A stretch of 10,254 bases of DNA from Planctomycetota bacterium (GTDB lineage Bacteria > Planctomycetota > UBA11346). The position numbers were made by a program, and so were the translations under genes. The notes under the pieces were generated by a model. That model worked only from the letters and a program-made list of their open reading frames with translations. It was not told where the DNA came from and made no database searches. The stretch is from positions 1 to 10,254 of the forward strand of contig REDX01000241.1 in assembly GCA_007695355.1 (NCBI GenBank), read 5' to 3'. Within the stretch, counting starts at the first letter, position 1. Each line of letters starts with the position of its first letter. This document shows, piece after piece, positions 1 through 10,254 of this stretch.

Positions 1-3000
1 AAACCGGAATAGGGATGCTCTAACTCCGAGCGCAGCTCGTCTTCGCCCTGGCTGATGCGCAGCAGACGATAGAAGTCGGCCTGGGAGCGCGAGGCAATGG
101 GGGCCAACACCGGATTGACGGTGAGACAGTTTTCCAAATAGGAGAGTTCAAAAGCCCCTTGGTGACCGCCGAGAATATCGCCGAGATTATAGGTATCAGC
201 GCGGTTGGCGAGCATATCAGGAATGCGGAAGCGCTCGCCGGATTCGGTATAGGGGTTGCCAGCCATGACCACCGCCACCTTTTTACCGCGCATATCGTAG
301 GTGCGAGTACGGCCACGCCACACGCCCTCGATGCGCCGCTGACCGTCGCACAGGGAGATGAATTTTTGCAAAAATTCAGGATGGCAGTGCTGAATGTCAT
401 CGACATAGATCATGACATTATTGCCCATTTCAAAGCTCAAATTGAGCTTCTCCAATTCCTGGCGGGCAGTGGCATTGGGGGCCTGCTCGGGATCCAGGCT
501 GGTTACCTCGTGACCAAGGGAGGGCCCATTGATCTTCATAAAGGTGAGACCCATAATCGAAGAGACGTACTCCATGAGGGTGGTCTTGCCGTAACCCGGG
601 GGCGAGATCAGCAATAAGAGGCCCATCAGGTCGGTGCGCTTGGCATCGCCGACGGCGCCAATCTGCTTGGCCAGATTATCACCGATCAGCGGCAGATAGG
701 CCTCATTAATCAGCTTATTGCGGACAAAACTGGTAAGCACCTTGGGCTTGAATTCTTCTAAGCGCAGTCGCTCGCGTTCGCGGGTCACCAACTCCCGGCG
801 CTGGTCATGGTAGGCGCGGTAGGCGGGAATGCGCTGTTCGATAAAGCGGCTGAGGCGGGCCTCAACATCATCGAGGCGCAGCTCCATGCGGCCGCCGCTG
901 ATGCGTCCGTGCTGGCCCAGTAGGCCCTCAACTTCGACCTGGGAGCGGGCGTGCACCGAGGTGCGGGGCAATTCCGGCAGACACAGGCCCAGGGCCACTT
1001 CGTCAATAATCGGCTGCCACTCGGGATGCTGCTGCTCGGCCCAACGATCGATCCAGGCCTTGGCCAACTGCCACTGCTCTTCGCGGTTGCGGGCGAGACG
1101 GGCAAGGTCGCGGCGCAGACGATCGTCGGCCCCGCGGGTGGACAAATCGGCCCAGAAGGCCTGCTCGCACTCCTCGGCCTCGCCCGAGCGCACCGCCTGG
1201 AAATCGTCTCCCGCCGCCAATTCCTCAAGCAAGTAGCTGGCAGCATTGCGGGCATGGGAATCGCCATCGGCAGCCAGGCCACAGCGGTTTTCGTAGCTGC
1301 CGATGAGCTCCGCCATTTCCCTGATCTGGGCCTGCTGCTCGGGACCAGCGCCAAAAAGGCCGCGCAGACTGACTAAGGAGCGGCAGCGGCGTGCCAGGCG
1401 CTTGCGCTGCTCGGCATCGGGCAGATCAGCCCACCACAGCAGGGCCAGGGCGCGGGCGGCGGTGGGGAAGCGTAAGAGGCCGCAGGTGGCCCGCAGGTGC
1501 AGCAGGGCATACAGGATTTTTACCGCATCGGCATCGTGCAACCCCCGCTCGTAGCCTTCCTCGTAGCGATCGCCGGCAACCCGGCGCACCAGGGCGGTAA
1601 GCTCAGCCTCATCGAGAGCCACTTTCTGCAGATACTCGAGACTGAGGCGCTGATCGCCAACCTGGCCCCCCTTCTCGGCTATGCGGATAATGTGCATGGC
1701 GAGAAATTCAGCGCGGTAAACTTTAGCATCTTCGCTGATTAAGTCCTCATTCCAAAAACGACGGGTAGCGAGAAATGCCTCATCGCGCACCGCCTCGAAG
1801 TAATCGGTGCCGCTGAGATGGAAACACATGCCGTCATCGCGGGGCAGTAGGGTAAGTTCCAGGTCTTGGCTATTGCGGCTAAAGCGATGCCGGCCCAGTT
1901 TGACGACTTCGCCTTCAAAGAGTTCAGACTTATCGCGCAGGGCGCGCACGCCATCCTCGCGGGAGGCCTTAATCCGGCTTTCAATATCATCGGATTTTAC
2001 CGAATCGCCCAAGTCCAGCAGACGCTTAACGATATCGCGCAGTTTGCCGAGCATCGGATCGGCGGCAAACCAGGCATTTAAATCATCCAGGCTGCTAAAG
2101 CTCAGGGCCCGCTTGCGCACGCCATCGAGAATGCGATCGGCGGCGCGGGAGAGGGAATTAGCCTGACGCTGACGCTCATCTAGCAGGGTTTGTTTGCGAC
2201 TCTGGAAGACCTCGTAAATTTCTTCACGCTTTTCTGAGAGCTGCTCGGTAAATGCATCAAATTCAATAAAGCGGCCTTCGATTTCCTCCAACTGCAAGAG
2301 TAATTTGCCAAGAAAATCGTCGACCTGGGCGGGCTCCTTGGCCAGGCCCAAATAGTTATTGGCGGTTTGCGAGAGAATCGTGAACTGGGCCGCAAACTCG
2401 GCCTGACCCTCGTGGCTGCCAAGGTCTGCGCGGCGGGCGGCGGCCACTGCTTTGGCGCGGTTGAGCCGGCCGTAAACCTCGGAGATGCGCTCCAGGATTT
2501 GCGTCCGCGCCACCGGGTCGTCGATCTCCAGGCTGCCGACGATTTCCATCAGCATATCCAAGCCAGATCCCAGTTCGTCCATGCGCCCAACCACCGGGCG
2601 CAGGTCCGCGGTTTTACTCACCGCCTGGGCTTCCTTCTCGAGGCTTGCAACCTCGTCGTAATAGGGCTGCACCGCCTCCGGTTGAAGGAGGAATTCCACC
2701 GCCGCGCGCGAGCGATCATCGGCGGCCTTCGTCAGATCGGTATCTAAAGCATCGAGGACTTCGCCATTGGTATAACGCACTTCGCGCAGGGATTGCACCT
2801 GGCCGCGGCGGCGGCGGATGCTGGCGAGCACGGTGACGAATTCGTCGATGTGCTCGTAGGCGGCAATCGCCACCTCACGCAAGGTTGCGCGCACCTCATC
2901 GCTGAGGCTGCGCACCCGTTGGCTGGCCTGCTTGGTGAGCTCTTGCACCTTCTCGAATTCGCCGATTACCTGGTCAGCGGTTTTCTGCGTAACGAGCAAT

Positions 3001-4454
3001 TGCTCGCGCAGGCCGCAGGCCTCGGCATGGCCCAGCCAATGGAATTGATCGAGGGTGCGGGTAATCGTGGCGAGAAGATCCTCGTAGACTACCCGCGATG
3101 GCTTTTGATCGGCAACCAAACGGACAATATGCAGACAGTCGGAAATGGCACGCACCAAATCACGATTACCGATGGTGGCGAGATGGGATCCCGGCGGCCG
3201 CGGCTTGGAGAGGGCGTAGGACTCGTCCTCGAAGGGCGTGGCCCATAGCTGCATGGTGTGCGAACGGGTGGGCGCATCGTCGGCGCGGAAGAGTATCAAG
3301 CGGCCATTGGGATAGAGGGCATAGCCGGAACACAGTATGGGATTCGCTACCTCGCGGCTAATCAGATTATACTGCAGAATAATATAATTGCCGCCGGTGG
3401 TATCGTGGAAGATATAAGCGATATCTTCACCATTGGGCGAGCGCACCGAGCGCACAAAGGCCATGCCCTCAGCGCGATGGGGAAAGACTTTATAATCGCC
3501 AGTGGCCAAATAATAACCATTGGGGAAAATCAGACCGTGGCCCTCGGGCAATTCTTGACAGGCGACACCGATGGCATCCAGGCGCACCGCCTCCGAGGCC
3601 TGTTTATTATAGACGATATAGCGATCCACCGTCTCCTGGTAGGGGCGCATGCGCAGGACAATGCAGCTCTCTAAATTGGCATAGGCAATCTGGGCATCAT
3701 CCAGGCCCTGGGTGGCATTATCCACCGGTTCTGCATAGATACCGTCACCGGAGGCGGTGTTATCTTCAACCTTAATCGTCAAATCACCTTCGGTGCACTC
3801 GACAAAGATAGTGTCATCAATATTAATATGGGCGTGCTGCCCGTAGACGTGCATATCGCGGGTGGTGCGCGTCCATTCCCAGGAATAGCGGGGCGGCAGT
3901 ACATGGTCGCGCTCGCCGCGGTTATCGATGTATTTAAGACCATCACCGTCTAAAGCCCAGCGCAGCACTTTGACATCGCCGGCGCGAGCACCGACTTGAA
4001 AAATCATTAAAAGGTGGGTTTCGGTGCGCCGAAGCTGTAGCAGACGGGCGTCTTTGTAGTACTGAAAAAGTTCAGTGAAATCTTTAATAAATGCGGGGTC
4101 GTTAAGGGCCTCGCGCTCAGCTGGAAGGAGGGCCCCGTCCTCGAGTTTAAATTTAGCGAAGACATCGGAAACCGCGGTTGCGCGCTTGAGGCCCATGAAG
4201 ACCTGGTAGCCAAAGATCAGCTTATTACCCTGGGCGCGGACAATGTCGCGGGCCACGCAGTTATGTTCGGTCTGTAGGTGGAAGGTATCGAGGAGGCGGG
4301 TTTCGGTGCCGCCGAAGATTTCGGTGCGCCGGGCATTGAGCTGGCCGACGCGACTACGCAGCTCCTGAGCCTGGTCGCTCAAACGCCGGCGGATAACTTC
4401 ATAGGTGCCGCCATCCAGGGCCTGCTGTTGCTGTTGCTGTTGCTCGTCGGCCAC
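1..4454 (-). CDS. Giant (more than 1,480 aa) multidomain protein, truncated at its 3' (C-terminal) end by the window edge. It has an N-terminal polyQ tract, a beta-rich repeat region, a central coiled-coil/helical region, and a C-terminal AAA+ ATPase domain of the AAA_5/MoxR/dynein-related type. Function unknown.
   Basis: Manual translation of the minus strand in the frame whose codons sit on + triplets starting at positions divisible by 3. There is no stop codon from 4496 down to position 3; the only in-frame stop is TGA, complement of 4497-4499. Translated motifs: ...LMGLLLLISPPGYGKTTLMEYV (Walker A, Lys codon at 585-587), ...NNVMIYVDDIQHCHPEF (Walker B, DD at 396-401), and ...VAVVMAGNPYTESGERFRIPDMLANRADTY (sensor region typical of AAA_5/MoxR-like ATPases). 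There is no ATG between the upstream stop and codon ~88. The most upstream plausible start is GTG at 4452-4454 (complement), with a GGAG 11 nt upstream, so the start is uncertain. This ORF is not in the supplied track, presumably because it is incomplete at the window edge. Confidence 0.8.
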   Translation of the reverse strand, partial: MADEQQQQQQQALDGGTYEVIRRRLSDQAQELRSRVGQLNARRTEIFGGTETRLLDTFHLQTEHNCVARDIVRAQGNKLIFGYQVFMGLKRATAVSDVFAKFKLEDGALLPAEREALNDPAFIKDFTELFQYYKDARLLQLRRTETHLLMIFQVGARAGDVKVLRWALDGDGLKYIDNRGERDHVLPPRYSWEWTRTTRDMHVYGQHAHINIDDTIFVECTEGDLTIKVEDNTASGDGIYAEPVDNATQGLDDAQIAYANLESCIVLRMRPYQETVDRYIVYNKQASEAVRLDAIGVACQELPEGHGLIFPNGYYLATGDYKVFPHRAEGMAFVRSVRSPNGEDIAYIFHDTTGGNYIILQYNLISREVANPILCSGYALYPNGRLILFRADDAPTRSHTMQLWATPFEDESYALSKPRPPGSHLATIGNRDLVRAISDCLHIVRLVADQKPSRVVYEDLLATITRTLDQFHWLGHAEACGLREQLLVTQKTADQVIGEFEKVQELTKQASQRVRSLSDEVRATLREVAIAAYEHIDEFVTVLASIRRRRGQVQSLREVRYTNGEVLDALDTDLTKAADDRSRAAVEFLLQPEAVQPYYDEVASLEKEAQAVSKTADLRPVVGRMDELGSGLDMLMEIVGSLEIDDPVARTQILERISEVYGRLNRAKAVAAARRADLGSHEGQAEFAAQFTILSQTANNYLGLAKEPAQVDDFLGKLLLQLEEIEGRFIEFDAFTEQLSEKREEIYEVFQSRKQTLLDERQRQANSLSRAADRILDGVRKRALSFSSLDDLNAWFAADPMLGKLRDIVKRLLDLGDSVKSDDIESRIKASREDGVRALRDKSELFEGEVVKLGRHRFSRNSQDLELTLLPRDDGMCFHLSGTDYFEAVRDEAFLATRRFWNEDLISEDAKVYRAEFLAMHIIRIAEKGGQVGDQRLSLEYLQKVALDEAELTALVRRVAGDRYEEGYERGLHDADAVKILYALLHLRATCGLLRFPTAARALALLWWADLPDAEQRKRLARRCRSLVSLRGLFGAGPEQQAQIREMAELIGSYENRCGLAADGDSHARNAASYLLEELAAGDDFQAVRSGEAEECEQAFWADLSTRGADDRLRRDLARLARNREEQWQLAKAWIDRWAEQQHPEWQPIIDEVALGLCLPELPRTSVHARSQVEVEGLLGQHGRISGGRMELRLDDVEARLSRFIEQRIPAYRAYHDQRRELVTRERERLRLEEFKPKVLTSFVRNKLINEAYLPLIGDNLAKQIGAVGDAKRTDLMGLLLLISPPGYGKTTLMEYVSSIMGLTFMKINGPSLGHEVTSLDPEQAPNATARQELEKLNLSFEMGNNVMIYVDDIQHCHPEFLQKFISLCDGQRRIEGVWRGRTRTYDMRGKKVAVVMAGNPYTESGERFRIPDMLANRADTYNLGDILGGHQGAFELSYLENCLTVNPVLAPIASRSQADFYRLLRISQGEDELRSELEHPYSG
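140..650 (-). other. AAA+ ATPase module (P-loop, Walker B, sensor) inside the giant CDS
   Basis: Seen in the translation: GYGKTT P-loop, hhhhDD Walker B, and a GNPxxExG...IPDxLxNRxD motif resembling MoxR/AAA_5 'ATQNP...LPEAxLDRF'. Confidence 0.7.
4422..4442 (-). repeat. Hexanucleotide/trinucleotide microsatellite, ctg(ctgttg)x3 on the + strand. It encodes QQQQQQQ near the N-terminus of the giant CDS.
   Basis: Direct reading: ctgctgttgctgttgctgttg. In the minus coding frame this is cag cag caa cag caa cag caa. Confidence 0.85.
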
Positions 4455-4503
4455 GGTACTCAGGGCTCCAGATCGGGGGGATGAAGATCGCGGGGATCAA
4501 TGA

Positions 4504-4544: not shown

Positions 4545-6560
4545 TTATTTCTCGTTCTGTAGCCAGCCGCTTAGATCATCAAAACCCAACTCCTTGGCTT
4601 TGGCCAGAAGCTCTTGCACCTTGGCCGGATCGCTGGTACCGATCTTGCGCATCAGCCAGGAGCTCACCAGGTTTTTGACATCTCCACTACCCAGCTTGCC
4701 GCTGCCTAGGACCTGAACCAAATCGGCGGGCAAAGAACGACCGCCTTCCATATAGTCGCTGGCGGCGTGCTGCAGGAGATCGCTGCGCCCGTGGGCGGCA
4801 TCAAGGCTCTTGCCGAAGGTGACCGCTTTGACGAAGCGATCGAAGAATTGGCCGTCGCCACCGACAATGTCGATCTTGGCCTTCTCCAGGGCCTGAGCCA
4901 TGACATGGGCGTTCTTCTCGGCGATTTCCACCTGGGCGCTGATCTCGGCCTTGGCGATTGAGAGGTCCTTCTCCAATCGCAGGCGAAACTCTTCGTGGGA
5001 GCGGGTGCTCTCGTTGAGCAGCTTCATCGCTTCGGCTTTCTCTGAGATGCCGGCGGCCTCGGCGGCCATCTTCTCGCGCACCGCATCGGCTTCCGCCTTG
5101 CCGCGCAGGGCGATGACCTTGGCCTGGGCCTCTTCCACCCGGACCTGAGCCAAGCCCTGCTTCTCGCTGGCGGCAGCATCGGCTTCCTTAACCTTGGCCG
5201 CGGCCAAGCCATCGGCGGCGGCGGTGGCCTGGCTGCCTTCGGCGCGACGAATGGCGGCCTGGGCTTCCTTCTCGGCGGCGGCCTGCTCGGCCTCGGCGAG
5301 GACCAGTTTTTCTTTGGCGTTATGCACCGCAGAGAGCTCAGCGGCTTCGGCGGCCTGAACTTCGCGGATCTTGCGATCGGCAGCTTCGGCTTCGGCGCGG
5401 GTTACCGCCACCTGCTTAATACGATCGGCTTCCATGGTAGCGCGGATATCCTTGATCCGCTCTTCTTCCTGGGCTACCGACTTTTCCACCACCACCCGTT
5501 CGCGGATTACCTCGGCGATATTCTTACGCTCGACTTCCAGGGCCTTTTCTTTCTCAATACGCTGCAGTTCCACCGCACGCTCGCGGTTGATGCGTTCGAG
5601 ATCGCGCTCTTTCTCAACCCGCTCTTCTTCCACAGCGATAACACGCTCGCGATTTTTAGCTGCTACTTCGACTTCGCGCTGGGCGTTTTCGCGGTCGATG
5701 CCAAGCTTCTGCTCGGCTTCGATATTGGCTTGATCAGAGCGGTATTTCTCTTCGAACTGCACCTTCTCAATTTCCGCGGTCTCGCGGGCGGCAACCACCG
5801 CAACTTCGCGCTGCTGTTTGGCCACCGCATCGGCTTCCTGGCGCTCAAGGGCAAGGATGGCTTCGCGGGCTTCGACGTCTTGCTTCTTCAACGCCTTTTC
5901 ACCCTCGCGCTGGATCTCGTTGGCGTGCACCCGTTGGTTGGTGGTGAGGTCGATAATCTTGCGCCGTCCTTGGGCATCAAGAATGTTGTCAGGATCCAAG
6001 CTGGAGAGCGGGGTTTGCTCGAGATAGTCAATGGCGCTGTCTTCAAGCACATAACCTGAGAGGTCTTTGCCGATAACATCGATAATCGCTTCTTTGAACT
6101 TTTGGCGCTCATTATAGAGGTCCTCAAAGTCCATCTGTTTACCGACGGTTTTCAGGGCTTCGGAGAACTTGGCGCTAAAGAGTTCTTCCAGGGTTTCCCG
6201 GCGGCTGGCCCGTTGGACACCGACATTGGTGGCCACCTTGCGCACATCGTCAGCGGTGGGGTTCACCTTAACGAAGAAAGTCACCTTTATATCAGCGCGA
6301 ATATTATCGCGGCAGATCAAGCCGTTCTTGCCTTGCCGGTCGATCTCGATGGTCTTCACCGAGATATCCATAATTTCCACCTTGTGGATAACCGGGATAA
6401 CGACACCACCGGTAAAGACCACGTCAGGTTCGCGTTTCATTTTATTGATAATCAGCGCCTTACCCTGCTCTACCTTGCGATAGAGCGAGAAGATCATGAT
6501 TATAATGCCCAAGAGAATAAAGAGCAGGATCGCCGCAGCGAGAATCACATAAATCAACAT
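4545..6560 (-). CDS. yqiK: Flotillin-like SPFH/Band-7 family protein (YqiK-like). It has an N-terminal TM helix, an SPFH domain and a long Ala/Glu-rich coiled coil.
   Basis: ORF-track protein of 671 aa. Its N-terminus MLIYVILAAAILLFILLGIIIMIFSLYRKVEQGKALIINKMKREPDVVFTGGVVIPVIHKVEIMDISVKTIEIDRQGKNGLICRDNIRADIKVTFFVKVN is a classic flotillin/YqiK start. The EA/AK-rich coiled coil is typical. A GGAG lies 7 nt upstream of the ATG at 6560 on the minus strand. Confidence 0.9.
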   Translation of the reverse strand: MLIYVILAAAILLFILLGIIIMIFSLYRKVEQGKALIINKMKREPDVVFTGGVVIPVIHKVEIMDISVKTIEIDRQGKNGLICRDNIRADIKVTFFVKVNPTADDVRKVATNVGVQRASRRETLEELFSAKFSEALKTVGKQMDFEDLYNERQKFKEAIIDVIGKDLSGYVLEDSAIDYLEQTPLSSLDPDNILDAQGRRKIIDLTTNQRVHANEIQREGEKALKKQDVEAREAILALERQEADAVAKQQREVAVVAARETAEIEKVQFEEKYRSDQANIEAEQKLGIDRENAQREVEVAAKNRERVIAVEEERVEKERDLERINRERAVELQRIEKEKALEVERKNIAEVIRERVVVEKSVAQEEERIKDIRATMEADRIKQVAVTRAEAEAADRKIREVQAAEAAELSAVHNAKEKLVLAEAEQAAAEKEAQAAIRRAEGSQATAAADGLAAAKVKEADAAASEKQGLAQVRVEEAQAKVIALRGKAEADAVREKMAAEAAGISEKAEAMKLLNESTRSHEEFRLRLEKDLSIAKAEISAQVEIAEKNAHVMAQALEKAKIDIVGGDGQFFDRFVKAVTFGKSLDAAHGRSDLLQHAASDYMEGGRSLPADLVQVLGSGKLGSGDVKNLVSSWLMRKIGTSDPAKVQELLAKAKELGFDDLSGWLQNEK

Positions 6561-6596: not shown

Positions 6597-7286
6597 TTAA
6601 GATTCCTGGGGGAGGGATTCCGAACGCGTAGAGACCATGCCCACCTGGGCGAGGGGCCGCACGGTGTAGCTGCCGCATTGAGGGTCATAATTAGTGATTA
6701 CCGCCGCCGAGTCCATGGCCATATCATTGGGTATGTCGCAGACCACATTCAGCAGAAGCTCTTGGCCATGGTGATCGGGCACCTTGAAGATGGCGGTACC
6801 GAAGGTTTCGCTGACCCTTGAGGAGGTGATGATAACCTGCCCACCGATGAGATTGCCAGCGCCGCGGACGGTGTGCACCCGAAAGAGAGGCTTAAGCGGA
6901 CGGGCAGTGTAGGTGGTTAGCCAGAGAGCGCCGACAAAGCTGCCGAGGAATATGGTGGTACCGATGAGGCCGACGAGAATGCCACTAATCAGTAAGGGCA
7001 TAATGAAAAGCTGAGCGGCAATGCTGATCAGCCAGGACTTGAAAACCAGCAAGGAGATCACCACCGTCAGCGGCACCTGGCCCAGGGAGAGGGCATGGGA
7101 AAGGCCGCTGAGTACACCCCCCCCCTCCACCTGGGCATCGATCTCGGCTTCGGCATCGCCGGGGAAAATATCAATGCCGAGGGCGCCAACCATGACCAGA
7201 GACCAATAGCCCAGGATAGCGAGCATAAGGGTGGTCCAGATTACCGTCGGAAAGCCGAGTAAGGTTGTCAGCATCTCATCAATCAT
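6597..7286 (-). CDS. yqiJ: NfeD-like (YqiJ-like) polytopic membrane protein with a C-terminal OB-fold-like domain. It is the upstream partner of the flotillin gene in an operon.
   Basis: The track ORF 6597..7673 has a 129-codon upstream extension. The first Met at 7286-7284 (second ATG at 7274) precedes TM-rich MIDEMLTTLLGFPTVIWTTLMLAILGYWSLVMVGALGIDIF... The C-terminal part, VHTVRGAGNLIGGQVIITSSRVSETFGTAIFKVPDHHGQELLLNVV, matches the soluble NfeD beta-barrel. The gap to the flotillin start is 36 nt, and NfeD-flotillin pairing is canonical. No strong Shine-Dalgarno sequence is visible, so the start is somewhat uncertain. Confidence 0.75.
   Translation of the reverse strand: MIDEMLTTLLGFPTVIWTTLMLAILGYWSLVMVGALGIDIFPGDAEAEIDAQVEGGGVLSGLSHALSLGQVPLTVVISLLVFKSWLISIAAQLFIMPLLISGILVGLIGTTIFLGSFVGALWLTTYTARPLKPLFRVHTVRGAGNLIGGQVIITSSRVSETFGTAIFKVPDHHGQELLLNVVCDIPNDMAMDSAAVITNYDPQCGSYTVRPLAQVGMVSTRSESLPQES
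7117..7125 (-). repeat. Homopolymeric C9 (G9 on the coding strand) inside the NfeD-like CDS, encoding EGGGV.
   Basis: Direct reading of acaCCCCCCCCCtcc. The minus-strand frame reads gtg gag ggg ggg ggt gta. Confidence 0.8.
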
Positions 7287-7436
7287 AGGGACGAGGACCC
7301 TAGCAAAGGCCTTGACGAAGGGAAATGATTTTCTGCCGGCTCGGTACCACCATTTCCTTGCGACCAGGCCTGAGCTCCATACCGTAATCGCCAACACCTG
7401 CCCCGGCCCCCCAGCGGGAGGCCTTGGAGATTCGCC
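7287..7436. promoter_or_regulatory. 150-bp divergent intergenic region between the NfeD/flotillin operon (-) and the PspA/AAA+ operon (+). Bidirectional promoters are expected here.
   Basis: It lies between two divergently oriented start codons. There are -35-like hexamers TTGACG (7311-7316) and TTGCGA (7356-7361), with weak -10-like CGTAAT/ACCGTA about 17-19 nt downstream. There is a strong RBS ggaga 6 nt before the PspA ATG. No convincing sigma54 (GG-N10-GC) element was found. Confidence 0.35.
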
Positions 7437-8276
7437 ATGTTTCGCGCCATCGGTCGTTGGTTCCGCAGCCTCGGATATTTGGTTAGTGGCCGGGTTGAGT
7501 CCTCGGCCCGACGCATGGATACAGATCCCCACGCCATGCGCTCGAAGTACGATGATGTGATCCGGGAAAAGACCAAGCGCATCCAGCAATATAAAGAAGC
7601 GGTGGCCGGACTCATCGCCCAGCAAGAACACAAGATGAGTCAGGTCAAAAATCTGAGCGAAGAACTCAAGCACCTGGAAGATCTCAAGGCCGGCGCCCTC
7701 GCCAAGGCCCAGCAGCGGGTGGGCGAACTACAGGCCAAGGGCGCCGATAAATCCGTCATCCAGAGCGACCCCGATTACCAGAAATGCCTGAACGCCTTTA
7801 ATGACTTCACCTCCACCGGCACCGAAAAGCAGGCCCGCGTCGATGAAGCCGAAGGCGAAATCGAGGATTTTGGCCGGCGCATTAAAGAGCACACCTTGCA
7901 GTTGGAAGTGCTGCGCAAGGAAATCGAAAAGCTGCGCTCGGAAGCTAACGAGGCGGTGGCCGATGTGATCTCGGCCAAGCAAGAGGCCGAACTCAATGAT
8001 GCTCTTTCCGGCATTGGCACCGACTCCACCTCAGAGAAGCTTGGCGAGCTGCGCCGTATGCGCTCGGAAGTCAAGGCCAGCGCCCGGGTTAGCAAAGAGC
8101 TGGCGGGCACCGATCACAAACTGGCCGAAGCCGAATTCCTGGAATACGCCCGTAAAAACGCCGGCAATACGGAGTTCGAACGTCTGGTGGGGCTGGCCGC
8201 CGGCAGCGATGCCCCAAGCCCCGAGGCCAGTGAAAAGGCCGCGCCCAGCCCTGAACGCGAGCGCCTGCCCGAATAG
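7437..8276 (+). CDS. pspA: PspA/IM30/Vipp1-family (ESCRT-III superfamily) coiled-coil membrane-remodelling protein
   Basis: 279-aa ORF. It has an N-terminal amphipathic helix MFRAIGRWFRSLGYLV, followed by long heptad coiled-coil sequence (KEAVAGLIAQQEHKMSQVKNLSEELKHLEDLKAGALAKAQQRVGELQ...) whose length and periodicity are like PspA/Vipp1. A GGAGA RBS lies at -6. It sits immediately upstream of an AAA+ ATPase, a documented PspA partner. The family assignment is by pattern, not by search. Confidence 0.7.
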   Translation: MFRAIGRWFRSLGYLVSGRVESSARRMDTDPHAMRSKYDDVIREKTKRIQQYKEAVAGLIAQQEHKMSQVKNLSEELKHLEDLKAGALAKAQQRVGELQAKGADKSVIQSDPDYQKCLNAFNDFTSTGTEKQARVDEAEGEIEDFGRRIKEHTLQLEVLRKEIEKLRSEANEAVADVISAKQEAELNDALSGIGTDSTSEKLGELRRMRSEVKASARVSKELAGTDHKLAEAEFLEYARKNAGNTEFERLVGLAAGSDAPSPEASEKAAPSPERERLPE

Positions 8277-8293: not shown

Positions 8294-10090
8294 ATGGTCT
8301 CCTCTCCCACCCGCTCTCAATTGCGCTTTCTGCGCGACGCGGCGCGCCTGCTTAATGCCGGGCAGACCCGCAGCCTTATTCTATCTGGTAATGTCGCCGA
8401 CCTCTTCCCCCCTCCCGACGGCGACGGGAACGATGAATGGGTACCCCTGCCCGAACTCCTACGCCGCTCCTGGAGCGTGCCCGGGCGGCTGGTCATTACC
8501 TACGAAATCAATGGCCCCCTGCGCTTCCAAAGCGAAGCCGTGCAGCGTCGCCTGCGCGATGCCTGGGTGCGCTGGCGCACCGGCCTGGGCCCGGGTGACC
8601 TCGCCCTACAGCGCCTAGCCAGCGGCCAATCCCCCGGCGATATTGATGCCGGCTTTGACCAGCTCTGTGCCCAGGCCATTGGCAAGCCAACCCTGGCCCT
8701 CGAGCTCTTGCGCCAGTTCTGCTGTTGCTCGCGCCTCGAACATCAGGGGGCGCCGGTGCTGCGCGAGGACCTGCTGATCATTATTGAGGCCGCCGATCTG
8801 ATTCTCCCCGAGGCGACGATTTCCTCCCTCGGCGATGCCGATCGCCAGCGCCTGCATATCTGTCACGACTGGTTTGCCGATCCCGAATTTAATGCCGCCT
8901 ACGATGCGGTGGTGCTCATCTGTGAAAGCCGGGCCGCCCTCAATCAGCGCATCGCTCGACTGCCGCAGATGCTAGAAATGACGGTGGACGATCCGGATCT
9001 CGCACTACGCGAGGCCTATATCGCCCACGAGGACATCCCGGAACTCAGCCCCGAGGATCGGACGCGCCTAGCCCTCGGCTCGGCCGGCCTCACCATCCAT
9101 GCCCTGCGTCAGCTGCTCCTCGGCATAAACCATAACCATGGCACCTGGAGCCCGGCCCTCCTCATCGATAAGGTGGAAGAGCATTTGCTGGCGCAATTGG
9201 GGGAGGATTCCATCTCCTTTTCCCGGCCCAACCACACCCTTGCCCAGGTCATGGGCTTTGACCGCCTCAAGCGCTTTCTCGCCGAAGAGCTGGTGCCGCG
9301 ACTGCGCCACGGTGGCGCCGCCGCCCTTTCCGGGGCCGCGGTATGCGGGCCCATCGGCGCCGGTAAGACCTTTATCTTTGAGGCCGTGGCCGGGGAATTG
9401 GGCCTGCCAGTTTTAGAGCTCAAAAATCTGCGCTCGCAGTGGTTTGGCCAGACCGATGCCATTGTCGAGCGCCTGCGCCGCCTGCTCACCGCCCTCGATC
9501 GGGTGGTAATTATGGTCGACGAAGCTGACACCCAATTTGGCGATCTGGGCCCGGGCAGCCACGAAACCGAACGCCGTCTCACCGGCCGCCTACAAAGCAT
9601 GATGAGCGACCCTAAGCTTTTAGGTAAGGTTTTTTGGCTGCTCATGACCGCCCGCATCGACCGCCTCTCGGCCGACCTTCGCCGCCCCGGCAGAGCTGGG
9701 GATCTGATTATCCCGGTCCTTGATCCCAGCCCGGAAGAGCGCCAGGCCTTCGTCCTTTGGACCTGCGAACCGGTGTGCCTGGCACCCTCACACGGATTGC
9801 GCAAGCGCCTGCTGGCCCACACCCATGACTGGTCTGCCGCCGCCTACGCCAGCCTGCGCCGAGAACTGCAGGCCCAGCGCAATACCCTAGGCAAAGACCT
9901 CAGCGAGGCCGAAATCCTGGCCCTGGTCGAAGACCGCCTGCTACCCCCCCTGGCCCAAGTACGACGCCGACAAACCCTGCTCGCCCTACTCAATTGCACC
10001 CGGCGCAGCCTGCTGCCCGATCCCGAAGTGGATGAGGCCACGCGCGAATCCTGGCGCCGAGAACTGGCGGCCCTCGAGATGACTCCGTAG
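8294..10090 (+). CDS. Classical-clade AAA+ ATPase (Vps4/FtsH-like ATPase core) with a roughly 330-aa N-terminal domain, possibly a degenerate pseudo-ATPase, and a C-terminal helical region
   Basis: 598-aa ORF with Walker A CGPIGAGKTF, Walker B VVIMVDEAD, sensor-1 region LLMTAR, and an arginine-finger-like DLRRPGRAGDLI (compare RPGRFDR of classical AAA). The N-terminal half contains Walker-B-like LLIIIEAADLI without a P-loop. It starts 17 nt after the PspA stop, with no obvious Shine-Dalgarno sequence, so coupling is likely. Confidence 0.85.
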   Translation: MVSSPTRSQLRFLRDAARLLNAGQTRSLILSGNVADLFPPPDGDGNDEWVPLPELLRRSWSVPGRLVITYEINGPLRFQSEAVQRRLRDAWVRWRTGLGPGDLALQRLASGQSPGDIDAGFDQLCAQAIGKPTLALELLRQFCCCSRLEHQGAPVLREDLLIIIEAADLILPEATISSLGDADRQRLHICHDWFADPEFNAAYDAVVLICESRAALNQRIARLPQMLEMTVDDPDLALREAYIAHEDIPELSPEDRTRLALGSAGLTIHALRQLLLGINHNHGTWSPALLIDKVEEHLLAQLGEDSISFSRPNHTLAQVMGFDRLKRFLAEELVPRLRHGGAAALSGAAVCGPIGAGKTFIFEAVAGELGLPVLELKNLRSQWFGQTDAIVERLRRLLTALDRVVIMVDEADTQFGDLGPGSHETERRLTGRLQSMMSDPKLLGKVFWLLMTARIDRLSADLRRPGRAGDLIIPVLDPSPEERQAFVLWTCEPVCLAPSHGLRKRLLAHTHDWSAAAYASLRRELQAQRNTLGKDLSEAEILALVEDRLLPPLAQVRRRQTLLALLNCTRRSLLPDPEVDEATRESWRRELAALEMTP

Positions 10091-10103: not shown

Positions 10104-10254
10104 GACATAAATAAGGGACATAAATAAGGTAAATGAGGGTAAATGAGGTAAATGAGGGACATGCAGTAAGGTAAATGAGGGACATGCAGTAAATAATAAG
10201 ATAAATGAGGATAAATGAGGATAAATGAGGATAAATGAGGATAAATGAGGATAA
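10104..10254. repeat. AT-rich nested tandem-repeat array: 13-mer gacataaataagg x2, then 23-mer ggtaaatgagggacatgcagtaa x2, then decamer ataaatgagg x5 or more, continuing beyond the window. It is built on a core TAAATGAGG motif that occurs 9 times in total.
   Basis: Direct reading of 10104-10254. Five perfect decamer copies lie at 10201-10250 plus a partial sixth. There are stop codons in all frames. It sits immediately downstream of the AAA+ gene stop at 10088-10090. Confidence 0.9.

Follow-up and report, generated by a model that had tools for sequence, protein, structure and literature searches.

A truncated DUF3686/DUF7902/AAA+ ATPase gene in a conserved flotillin operon of a Planctomycetota contig, with a possible role in membrane scaffold remodelling

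Introduction

What is encoded by the long open reading frame (ORF) that runs off the left end of a Planctomycetota contig, and what would its product do beside genes for membrane scaffold proteins? The window analysed here, 10,254 bp in length, is the whole deposited GenBank contig (REDX01000241.1, assembly GCA_007695355.1) of a Planctomycetota metagenome-assembled genome (MAG), where the gene in question is annotated "AAA family ATPase, partial". An earlier note, made from the letters alone, had described a giant minus-strand frame at this position, read it as a dynein/midasin-like mechanochemical ATPase and taken its location next to flotillin-NfeD and PspA-AAA+ genes to be new. On its profile matches, the window protein belongs, as a truncated but otherwise ordinary copy, to a DUF3686/DUF7902/AAA+ family that is catalogued but functionally uncharacterised. 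Its gene is the third of a published operon in which a YqiJ/NfeD-like gene, a flotillin gene and the ATPase gene follow one another, and we lean towards the view that the ATPase remodels membrane assemblies of flotillin and NfeD.

Results

The minus-strand frame and its truncation

Translation of the minus strand from 4499 to 3 gave a stop codon at 4499-4497 followed by 1,498 sense codons, with no stop up to the window edge. This bears out the uninterrupted frame from 4496 to 3 that the earlier note had seen running off the window. The frame is open from 4496 as claimed, but the likely start is a GTG at 4454: the deposited 1,484-aa partial protein (P0001) is identical to the product of this start, and the conserved N-terminus of the family in the family alignment, ...L(D/E)GG.YEVIR.RL, agrees with it. 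The partial coding sequence of this DUF3686/DUF7902/AAA+ ATPase is thus placed at 1..4454 on the minus strand by the open frame, the identity to P0001 and the family alignment, and has 1,484 codons with its 3' end off the window. The closest full-length homologue (P0002; 71% identical, 1,813 aa) extends 300 residues past the contig end. By alignment with it, about 300 codons are absent at the 3' end, and the window is estimated to hold 83% of the gene, counted from its 5' end; the product would be a soluble protein of ~1,800 aa, in which no transmembrane (TM) segment is predicted.

The long minus-strand frame is a real gene truncated by the contig end. A spurious ORF in GC-rich DNA was considered and was ruled out by the thousands of homologues with conserved length and motifs. 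The track of listed ORFs shows only short overlapping frames over 1-4500, which had been regarded as an anomaly; the ORF lister drops ORFs that touch a sequence end, and this rule explains the gap and rules out a biological cause for it. Of the features described for this protein, the Q7 tract (4422-4442), the beta-rich "PNG" stretch and a long central helical part were all found. The Q7 tract is unconserved, and P0002 carries DADQTQEQAQAQ at the same place.

Family membership and domain architecture

The N-terminal region, which the earlier note had not been able to assign to any recognised architecture, matched two Pfam families. PF12458 (DUF3686; cut-off 25 bits) was matched at 589.5 bits (E 4.5e-177) along the entire model (1-448 of 448), and PF25472 (DUF7902; cut-off 26 bits) was matched in the helical region after it at 100.3 bits (E 7e-29). 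The same order of DUF3686 and then DUF7902 is present in all 120 homologues listed. In a word-indexed search, more than 2,147 homologues passed E<=1e-10. The top scores exceeded 1,500 bits, and nearly all of these proteins are 1,750-1,950 aa long with the same Pfam string (median length 1,778-1,847 aa). When the first 720 aa were used in an exhaustive HMMER scan, 936 cluster representatives (50% identity) were obtained at E<=1e-3, of which the full-length ones span 1,590-2,036 aa and reach down to 27% identity. The taxonomic range takes in Planctomycetota, Myxococcota, Acidobacteriota and a Candidatus Nanopelagicales MAG, among others, and database records carry the names "DNA repair ATPase", "AAA family ATPase" or "hypothetical protein". 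The doubt raised at the outset, that there might be no homologues with conserved length or neighbourhood, is answered by these proteins and by the conserved three-gene neighbourhood described below. In full-length members, of ~1,600-2,050 aa, the AAA core is followed by a conserved lid (RTEPPFKLQGSYRNM). The window contig ends at residue 1,484, and the off-window part would comprise this lid and a poorly conserved coiled-coil tail.

From its N-terminus, the protein consists of a helix, a divergent beta-propeller, a spectrin-like rod, a helical linker domain and one MoxR/AAA_5-type AAA+ module. An AlphaFold2 model of window residues 1-1000, built on a 26-sequence alignment (mean predicted local distance difference test (pLDDT) score 82.5), has a helix at aa 17-47, a domain of ~28 strands at aa 53-405, long helices at aa 424-845, a beta domain at aa 850-890 and further helices. 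On the minus strand, DUF3686 (aa 31-472; 3039..4364) takes in the N-terminal helix and then the divergent propeller (aa 53-405; ~3240-4298), as placed by PF12458, AlphaFold and Foldseek. The helical rod (aa 424-845; 1920..3185) is formed by spectrin-repeat-like three-helix bundles and includes DUF7902 at 2427-2678. The small beta domain and a helical domain at aa 914-~1270 (together 645..1907; models m58cdfba073d9 and mb994c07ac3e6) join the rod to the ATPase, and no Pfam family was matched in this linker region. Every significant Foldseek match of the propeller was a beta-propeller protein, for example Sec12 (E 1.5e-5) and the WD40 subunits of intraflagellar transport complex A (IFT-A; E 1e-7). 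The top matches include IFT-A subunits and the clathrin terminal domain, and in the models the layout of a propeller followed by helical repeats superficially recalls eukaryotic membrane-coat proteins. Among 67 diverse members aligned, the fraction of columns conserved at 90% or more is 37% in the AAA core, 14% in the lid, 9% in the propeller and 0% in the tail.

The propeller (3240-4298) contains many invariant polar residues in short motifs (DLTIKVENNT.SG.G, LPE.HG.IFP.GYY, SPNGED and H.MQ.W.TPF), at a density that exceeds expectation for a pure scaffold propeller of the WD40 type. This pattern suggests a conserved site for binding a ligand or partner, or even a catalytic site. Weaker Foldseek matches of the propeller include PON1, a GH43 enzyme and a lyase. 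Two family members carry additional domains. In P0165, an NfeD1b_N domain (aa 74-215; 56.6 bits) is fused ahead of DUF3686 at the N-terminus, which gives an independent link of the family to the SPFH/NfeD system; P0165 is metagenomic and the fusion could reflect gene calling. P0064 has a C-terminal PilZ domain (aa 1811-1881), a hint of control by cyclic di-GMP (c-di-GMP).

The AAA+ module

The ATPase module scores 28.0 bits with Pfam AAA (PF00004), where 21.2 is the cut-off, and 27.4 bits with AAA_5, where it is 22; P0002 shows the same near-tie between these two families. Its alpha/beta core lies at 195..617 on the minus strand, with Walker A, Walker B and sensor-1 motifs and with the lid off the window. 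In translation, Walker A reads SPPGYGKTT (579-605) and Walker B reads VMIYVDDIQH (387-416), confirming the two motifs named in the earlier note; a pre-sensor-1 hairpin is predicted by the model at 279-341, the sensor-1 motif AGNP lies at 252-272, and PDMLANRAD (195-221) contains a putative Arg finger. All four family motifs (SPPGYGKTT, DDIQH, AGNP and PDMLANRA) are therefore within the window. The earlier label of a C-terminal AAA_5-type ATPase holds in part, as AAA_5 passes its cut-off alongside PF00004 and the module looks MoxR-like, but the module is not C-terminal: it only seems so because the contig ends, and in full-length proteins such as P0002 it is internal.

Among 187 full-length members, SPPGYGKTT is present in 184, and AGNP and PDML(A/S)NR(A/S) in 175 each. 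Walker B was recovered by a strict pattern in 125 of them, always with DD and never with DE (DDIQH in 121, DDVQH in 4), and the corresponding residues D381 and D382 are invariant in the 26-sequence alignment. All but two members (185/187) have one Walker A per chain, which indicates a single AAA+ module per polypeptide.

The C-terminal model was built on the homologue P0002 and not on the window protein. In this predicted structure, the AAA+ fold comes closest to MoxR proteins of known structure and has a beta-hairpin insertion ahead of sensor 1; the best structural matches of the module are NorQ, CbbQ and midasin. A search of the PDB by sequence and family profile gave matches at the level of the P-loop only (Rix7, p97 and RuvB; E ~1e-3).

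A conserved three-gene operon

Ravi et al. (mSystems 2024; PMC11237479) described an operon that encodes a YqiJ/YuaF TM protein with three TM segments, then a protein with Band-7, coiled-coil and flotillin regions, and then a protein with a beta-propeller, a coiled coil and an AAA-ATPase. In the window, the three genes of the triad occupy 7286-6597, 6560-4545 and 4454-1 of the minus strand, in agreement with the string in Table S3 of that paper. The two systems share the three genes, of which the first probably encodes a YqiJ-type protein here too, and they agree in gene order and orientation, in the domain description of the ATPase (an N-terminal beta-propeller followed by helical repeats) and in an occasional linkage to PspA. 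The earlier statement that flotillin-NfeD and PspA-AAA+ genes beside such an ATPase are not a described pairing does not hold: the operon and its PspA links have been published, and a check of synteny found the triad conserved.

The flotillin-type SPFH protein of the triad (4545..6560, minus strand; 671 aa) is encoded upstream of the ATPase gene across a 90-bp gap and matches Band_7 (E 1.1e-8) and Flot (E 3e-3). It consists of a TM segment at aa 1-31, a Band_7 domain, a long E/A/K-rich coiled coil and a flotillin C-terminal region, with its bulk predicted to be cytoplasmic, and it matches human flotillin-1 (9bq2_B) at E 4.7e-6. The gene for the YqiJ/NfeD-like membrane protein (6597..7286, minus strand; 229 aa, start ATG 7286) lies 36 bp upstream of the flotillin gene and was delimited by orthologue alignment and a TM scan. 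The maximal ORF at 6597-7673 on the minus strand starts with GTG at 7673, has 358 aa and overlaps the PspA-like gene by 237 bp; the shorter gene was chosen because orthologues align only from about residue 130 of this ORF. The protein is predicted to span the membrane 3-4 times and to end in a beta (OB-like) domain. It had no Pfam match even at E<=1, a profile search of the PDB was empty, and its orthologues gave sub-threshold matches only (YqiJ_OB, E 5.7e-3; YqiJ_N, E 0.013-0.49). In Hymenobacter, the protein in this place carries a DUF1449 (YqiJ) annotation, and this annotation and the architecture are each in keeping with the YqiJ/NfeD family.

We fetched 80 loci carrying the ATPase gene, mostly myxobacterial, of which 68 were informative in having at least 2.6 kb of upstream sequence. 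A flotillin gene is adjacent and on the same strand in 54 of the 68 and is 1.2-7 kb off in another four. The YqiJ-like gene was found in 56 of the 80 loci, and all-against-all clustering of ORFs over the loci gave no further conserved neighbour besides these two genes. The triad is kept in a locus where the N-terminal region of the ATPase is 27% identical and the flotillin 43% identical to those of the window (L082), in Acidobacteriota (L083), in a MAG labelled Candidatus Nanopelagicales (L084), on a Hymenobacter plasmid and on plasmid pQBR103. The gene order YqiJ/NfeD-like, flotillin, ATPase is conserved across phyla.

Loci from Sorangium show other arrangements. Nine (L005, L006, L009, L010, L012, L013, L017, L020 and L051) are without flotillin in the 10 kb upstream, other Sorangium loci have it 5-7 kb distant, and the ATPase gene is often followed by one for a FIST-domain protein (13 loci). 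In L081 (GCA_007693455.1), the contig of the closest relative, the last ~60 bp of the ATPase gene are shared with a co-directional gene for a GNAT acetyltransferase (10887-11393; 168 aa). This recalls the yuaF(nfeD)-floT-yuaI operon of B. subtilis, with a GNAT gene after flotillin.

PspA links and the divergent gene pair

On the plus strand, two genes point away from the triad. The first (7437..8276) encodes a 279-aa PspA/Vipp1-like coiled-coil protein, with a PspA_IM30 match below the cut-off (E 4e-3) and Vipp1 matches at E 0.046-0.13; this gene is an associated module outside the triad. The second (8294..10090) starts 17 bp after it and encodes a 598-aa classical-clade AAA+ protein (Pfam AAA, E 1.5e-16; NCBIfam matches of the CDC48/PAN/CdvC type). 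This protein has an active AAA module at aa 350-469 and a degenerate N-terminal half, in which no AAA+ model was matched. Its more than 2,200 homologues of ~606 aa are named "SpoVK/Ycf46/Vps4 family", and it agrees with the partner that PMC11237479 reports for PspA in a separate module, a protein with two AAA+ domains of which the N-terminal copy is inactive. By sequence, this widespread pair is a candidate bacterial analogue of ESCRT-III and Vps4; it has a bioinformatic mention in PMC11237479, and we found no experimental study of it. In the words of a 2025 review (PMC7619361), an ATPase of the Vps4 type acting on PspA "appears absent in bacteria".

The published operon occurs with and without a CesT/Tir-PspA dyad, and its abbreviated, PspA-less forms are more widely distributed (PMC11237479). 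The window differs from the complete form in that its PspA-like gene is divergent and accompanied by the two-AAA+ protein rather than belonging to a co-directional CesT/Tir-PspA (YjfI/YjfJ-type) dyad. No CesT/Tir or YjfJ-type PspA gene is present in the window, where the divergent and weakly PspA-like gene is found instead. Membership in the core operon is left intact by this absence, since abbreviated operons without the dyad are part of the published description.

The triad and the PspA-like/AAA+ pair were seen back-to-back only in three Planctomycetota contigs: the window, L081, with a PspA-like gene 82% identical, and L087, with a 279-aa gene at the same position. The ATPases of the latter two are 71% and roughly 55% identical to that of the window, respectively. 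The layout did not recur in Verrucomicrobia or in the 80 mostly myxobacterial loci, where tblastn returned one match for the PspA-like protein and none for the 598-aa AAA+ protein, indicating a lineage-specific rather than family-wide pairing. The layout is a lineage-specific juxtaposition of two published modules.

Other links to PspA were found elsewhere. A YjfI+PspA dyad precedes the triad in 5 of the 80 loci, all gammaproteobacterial. The Hymenobacter plasmid has the order Tir - PspA/IM30 - DUF1449 - 722-aa flotillin-like protein - "DNA repair ATPase", and this ATPase is 43.6% identical to the N-terminal domain of the window protein, which identifies the ATPase family of the operon in PMC11237479 with that of the window. 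For the PspA-like/AAA+ pair, an Acidobacteria operon (L089) fits the ABC/permease/OmpA variant of the same paper. PspA linkage is recurrent and has arisen independently, as YjfI+PspA, as Tir+PspA and as the divergent PspA-like+AAA+ pair.

The Pseudomonas fluorescens SBW25 megaplasmid pQBR103 (L085; NC_009444.1, 84.4-97.6 kb) carries a ten-gene cluster on one strand, in the order YjfI - PspA - rhomboid - DUF2491 - DUF350 - DUF1190 - glutathionylspermidine-synthase-like - small protein - SPFH - DUF3686 ATPase (the last named "DNA repair ATPase"). The cluster joins both operon types of PMC11237479 and is a ready-made experimental system.

Discussion

Probable remodelling of flotillin/NfeD assemblies

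On balance, we think it probable that the ATPase drives the ATP-dependent remodelling of flotillin/NfeD membrane assemblies as part of a PspA-linked envelope-stress system. The ATPase would form a ring, like other AAA+ proteins, and its long propeller-tipped arms would attach to the flotillin/NfeD assembly from the cytoplasmic side of the membrane. Hydrolysis of ATP would then remodel the scaffold or its clients by assembly, disassembly or extraction, in the service of an envelope-stress or membrane-maintenance system that may repeatedly recruit PspA-type (ESCRT-III-like) proteins. We infer ring formation, flotillin/NfeD binding and remodelling from the behaviour of AAA+ proteins and from guilt by association. 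The AAA+ precedents are the MoxR chaperones NorQ and CbbQ, Vps4 with ESCRT-III, and FtsH inside HflK/C SPFH cages, and the precedent of an SPFH cage with an AAA+ protein supports functional coupling between the two. The proposed role agrees with PMC11237479, which reports gene association only and reads the operons as chaperone-like assembly systems for membrane complexes.

Known SPFH systems offer the closest comparison. As in HflK/C-FtsH, QmcA-YbbJ and YuaF-FloT, an SPFH/flotillin protein, an NfeD-type partner and an AAA+ protein come together at the cytoplasmic membrane, and SPFH-AAA+ structures are cited in PMC13086221 and PMC10936438. In contrast to FtsH, a membrane-anchored classical-clade AAA+ protease in a periplasm-facing cage, the window ATPase is predicted to be soluble and MoxR-like, without a protease domain. 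The locus also resembles Vps4/ESCRT-III and PspF/PspA in having a dedicated AAA+ gene beside a polymer-forming membrane scaffold, with a PspA-like gene present; Vps4 itself belongs to the classical clade and has an MIT domain, and the Vps4-like candidate of the window is the 598-aa neighbour (8294-10090), not the giant ATPase.

Several observations weigh against the remodelling of flotillin/NfeD assemblies by this ATPase. Flotillin is absent within 10 kb upstream in 10 of the 68 informative loci, nine of which are the Sorangium loci named above; these flotillin-less copies may represent a paralogue or a rearranged locus. The Walker B DD is unusual for an active AAA+ protein, and hydrolysis could be slow or switch-like. 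MoxR-type ATPases normally act with a VWA-domain partner, and the VWA domain is absent from the window proteins scanned with Pfam and from the scanned neighbour families. The structural models rest on the 26-sequence alignment, the C-terminal one is that of a homologue, and the structural margins are small. A literature search turned up no experimental study of any family member.

Other explanations of the locus

NorQ and CbbQ mature or reactivate specific client enzymes, and they are the proteins that the AAA+ module resembles most. The ATPase could thus be a MoxR-style chaperone for maturation or quality control of microdomain clients or PspA polymers, with flotillin/NfeD as a docking platform only, an account that also draws on the repeated recruitment of PspA genes and on the chaperone-like interpretation in PMC11237479. 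We consider this plausible, though less probable: the neighbourhood has no conserved client gene, just flotillin and the YqiJ-like gene, no VWA adaptor is found, and PspA is absent from most loci (the YjfI/PspA dyad occurs in 5 of 80). The protein departs from the MoxR family (NorQ, CbbQ and RavA; AAA_5), whose members have ~250-500 aa and a VWA/MIDAS partner, in its ~1,800 aa with a propeller and spectrin-like arm of its own, its Walker B DD and the lack of a VWA gene nearby; it resembles that family only marginally in sequence, with an equal score for PF00004.

Defence systems often include large NTPases with repeat-domain sensors, and the triad might be a conflict or anti-phage (abortive infection) system in which the ATPase senses infection and triggers a membrane-directed response. 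Copies of the ATPase on large plasmids and chromids (pQBR103, Hymenobacter, Deinococcus and Streptomyces) and the phospholipase D gene of some proteobacterial versions (PMC11237479) would fit such a system, but the other evidence makes it quite improbable. At E<=0.01, none of the three triad proteins had a match among the PADLOC-DB v2 models, no homologues occur among 50,697 phage records, and the neighbourhood holds no conserved nuclease, TIR, protease or pore-former effector. The flanks in L081 are chromosomal and housekeeping-like (SMC, FtsK), and a literature search found no flotillin-type defence system.

The mechanochemical motor proposed in the earlier note fares worse still. The defining feature of dynein and midasin (Rea1/Mdn1) is a single chain with six AAA+ modules in series, and midasin is among the best structural matches of the AAA+ module. 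However, the model has a single AAA+ core, the 185 members counted above have one Walker A and not six modules, and the single-module MoxR proteins NorQ and CbbQ match better. No equivalent of the MIDAS/VWA domain or of the microtubule-binding stalk was detected in the window ATPase, which is also without a linker of the dynein type, and we regard a motor of this kind as very improbable. Least credible of all is a DNA-repair ATPase, for which the name on PF12458, propagated to NCBI and JGI records, and a weak Walker-A-level similarity to RuvB (E ~1e-3) can be cited: the match to RuvB is confined to ~45 residues at the P-loop and scores 16-18 bits where 282-299 would be required, the scans revealed neither a DNA-binding or nuclease domain nor an SMC head or helicase, the genes conserved beside it code for membrane proteins, and a literature search found nothing tying the family to repair, so that the name is without support and unfit for inferring function.

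A possible dedicated flotillin motor

A more specific form of flotillin/NfeD remodelling can be put forward tentatively. The DUF3686 ATPase might be a dedicated flotillin motor, a homo-hexameric ring of the MoxR type with six spectrin-like arms, tipped by propellers, gripping a flotillin/NfeD dome, which ATP would open, disassemble or recycle. In Planctomycetota, the PspA-like/Vps4-like pair would stand alongside it and the locus would form a two-motor system for membrane repair or remodelling. If true, bacteria would gain an ATP-driven scaffold cycle analogous to that of Vps4 with ESCRT-III.

The role and assembly turnover of bacterial flotillins are debated, and a conserved AAA+ ATPase nearly always beside flotillin offers an experimental handle on flotillin turnover. 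The ATPase is present in tractable carriers, namely Myxococcus, Proteus mirabilis, Vibrio campbellii and the Pseudomonas plasmid pQBR103. The value of the locus lies with the family, which is already in Pfam and in the literature; the window adds one truncated copy from an uncultured planctomycete and, as its own contribution, the triad back-to-back with the PspA-like/AAA+ pair in this lineage.

Other features of the contig

The 150-bp divergent intergenic region at 7287..7436, between the triad and the PspA-like/AAA+ pair, presumably holds promoters. It has no match to the sigma-70 consensus, which says little for a Planctomycetota genome, and scans of the window for promoter and terminator consensus, Rfam families and tRNAs returned nothing informative. 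Coiled-coil matches to SMC/Rad50 elsewhere in the window were rejected as low-complexity noise.

At the right end, an AT-rich tandem repeat (10104-10254) starts 14 bp past the stop codon of the 598-aa AAA+ gene and reaches the last base. It is absent from all 89 fetched loci. The repeat is made of ~12 copies of GGTAAATGAG/GATAAATGAG with super-periods of 13, 20, 23 and 41 bp, unlike the rest of this ~60% GC genome, and it probably caused the assembly break at this end of the contig.

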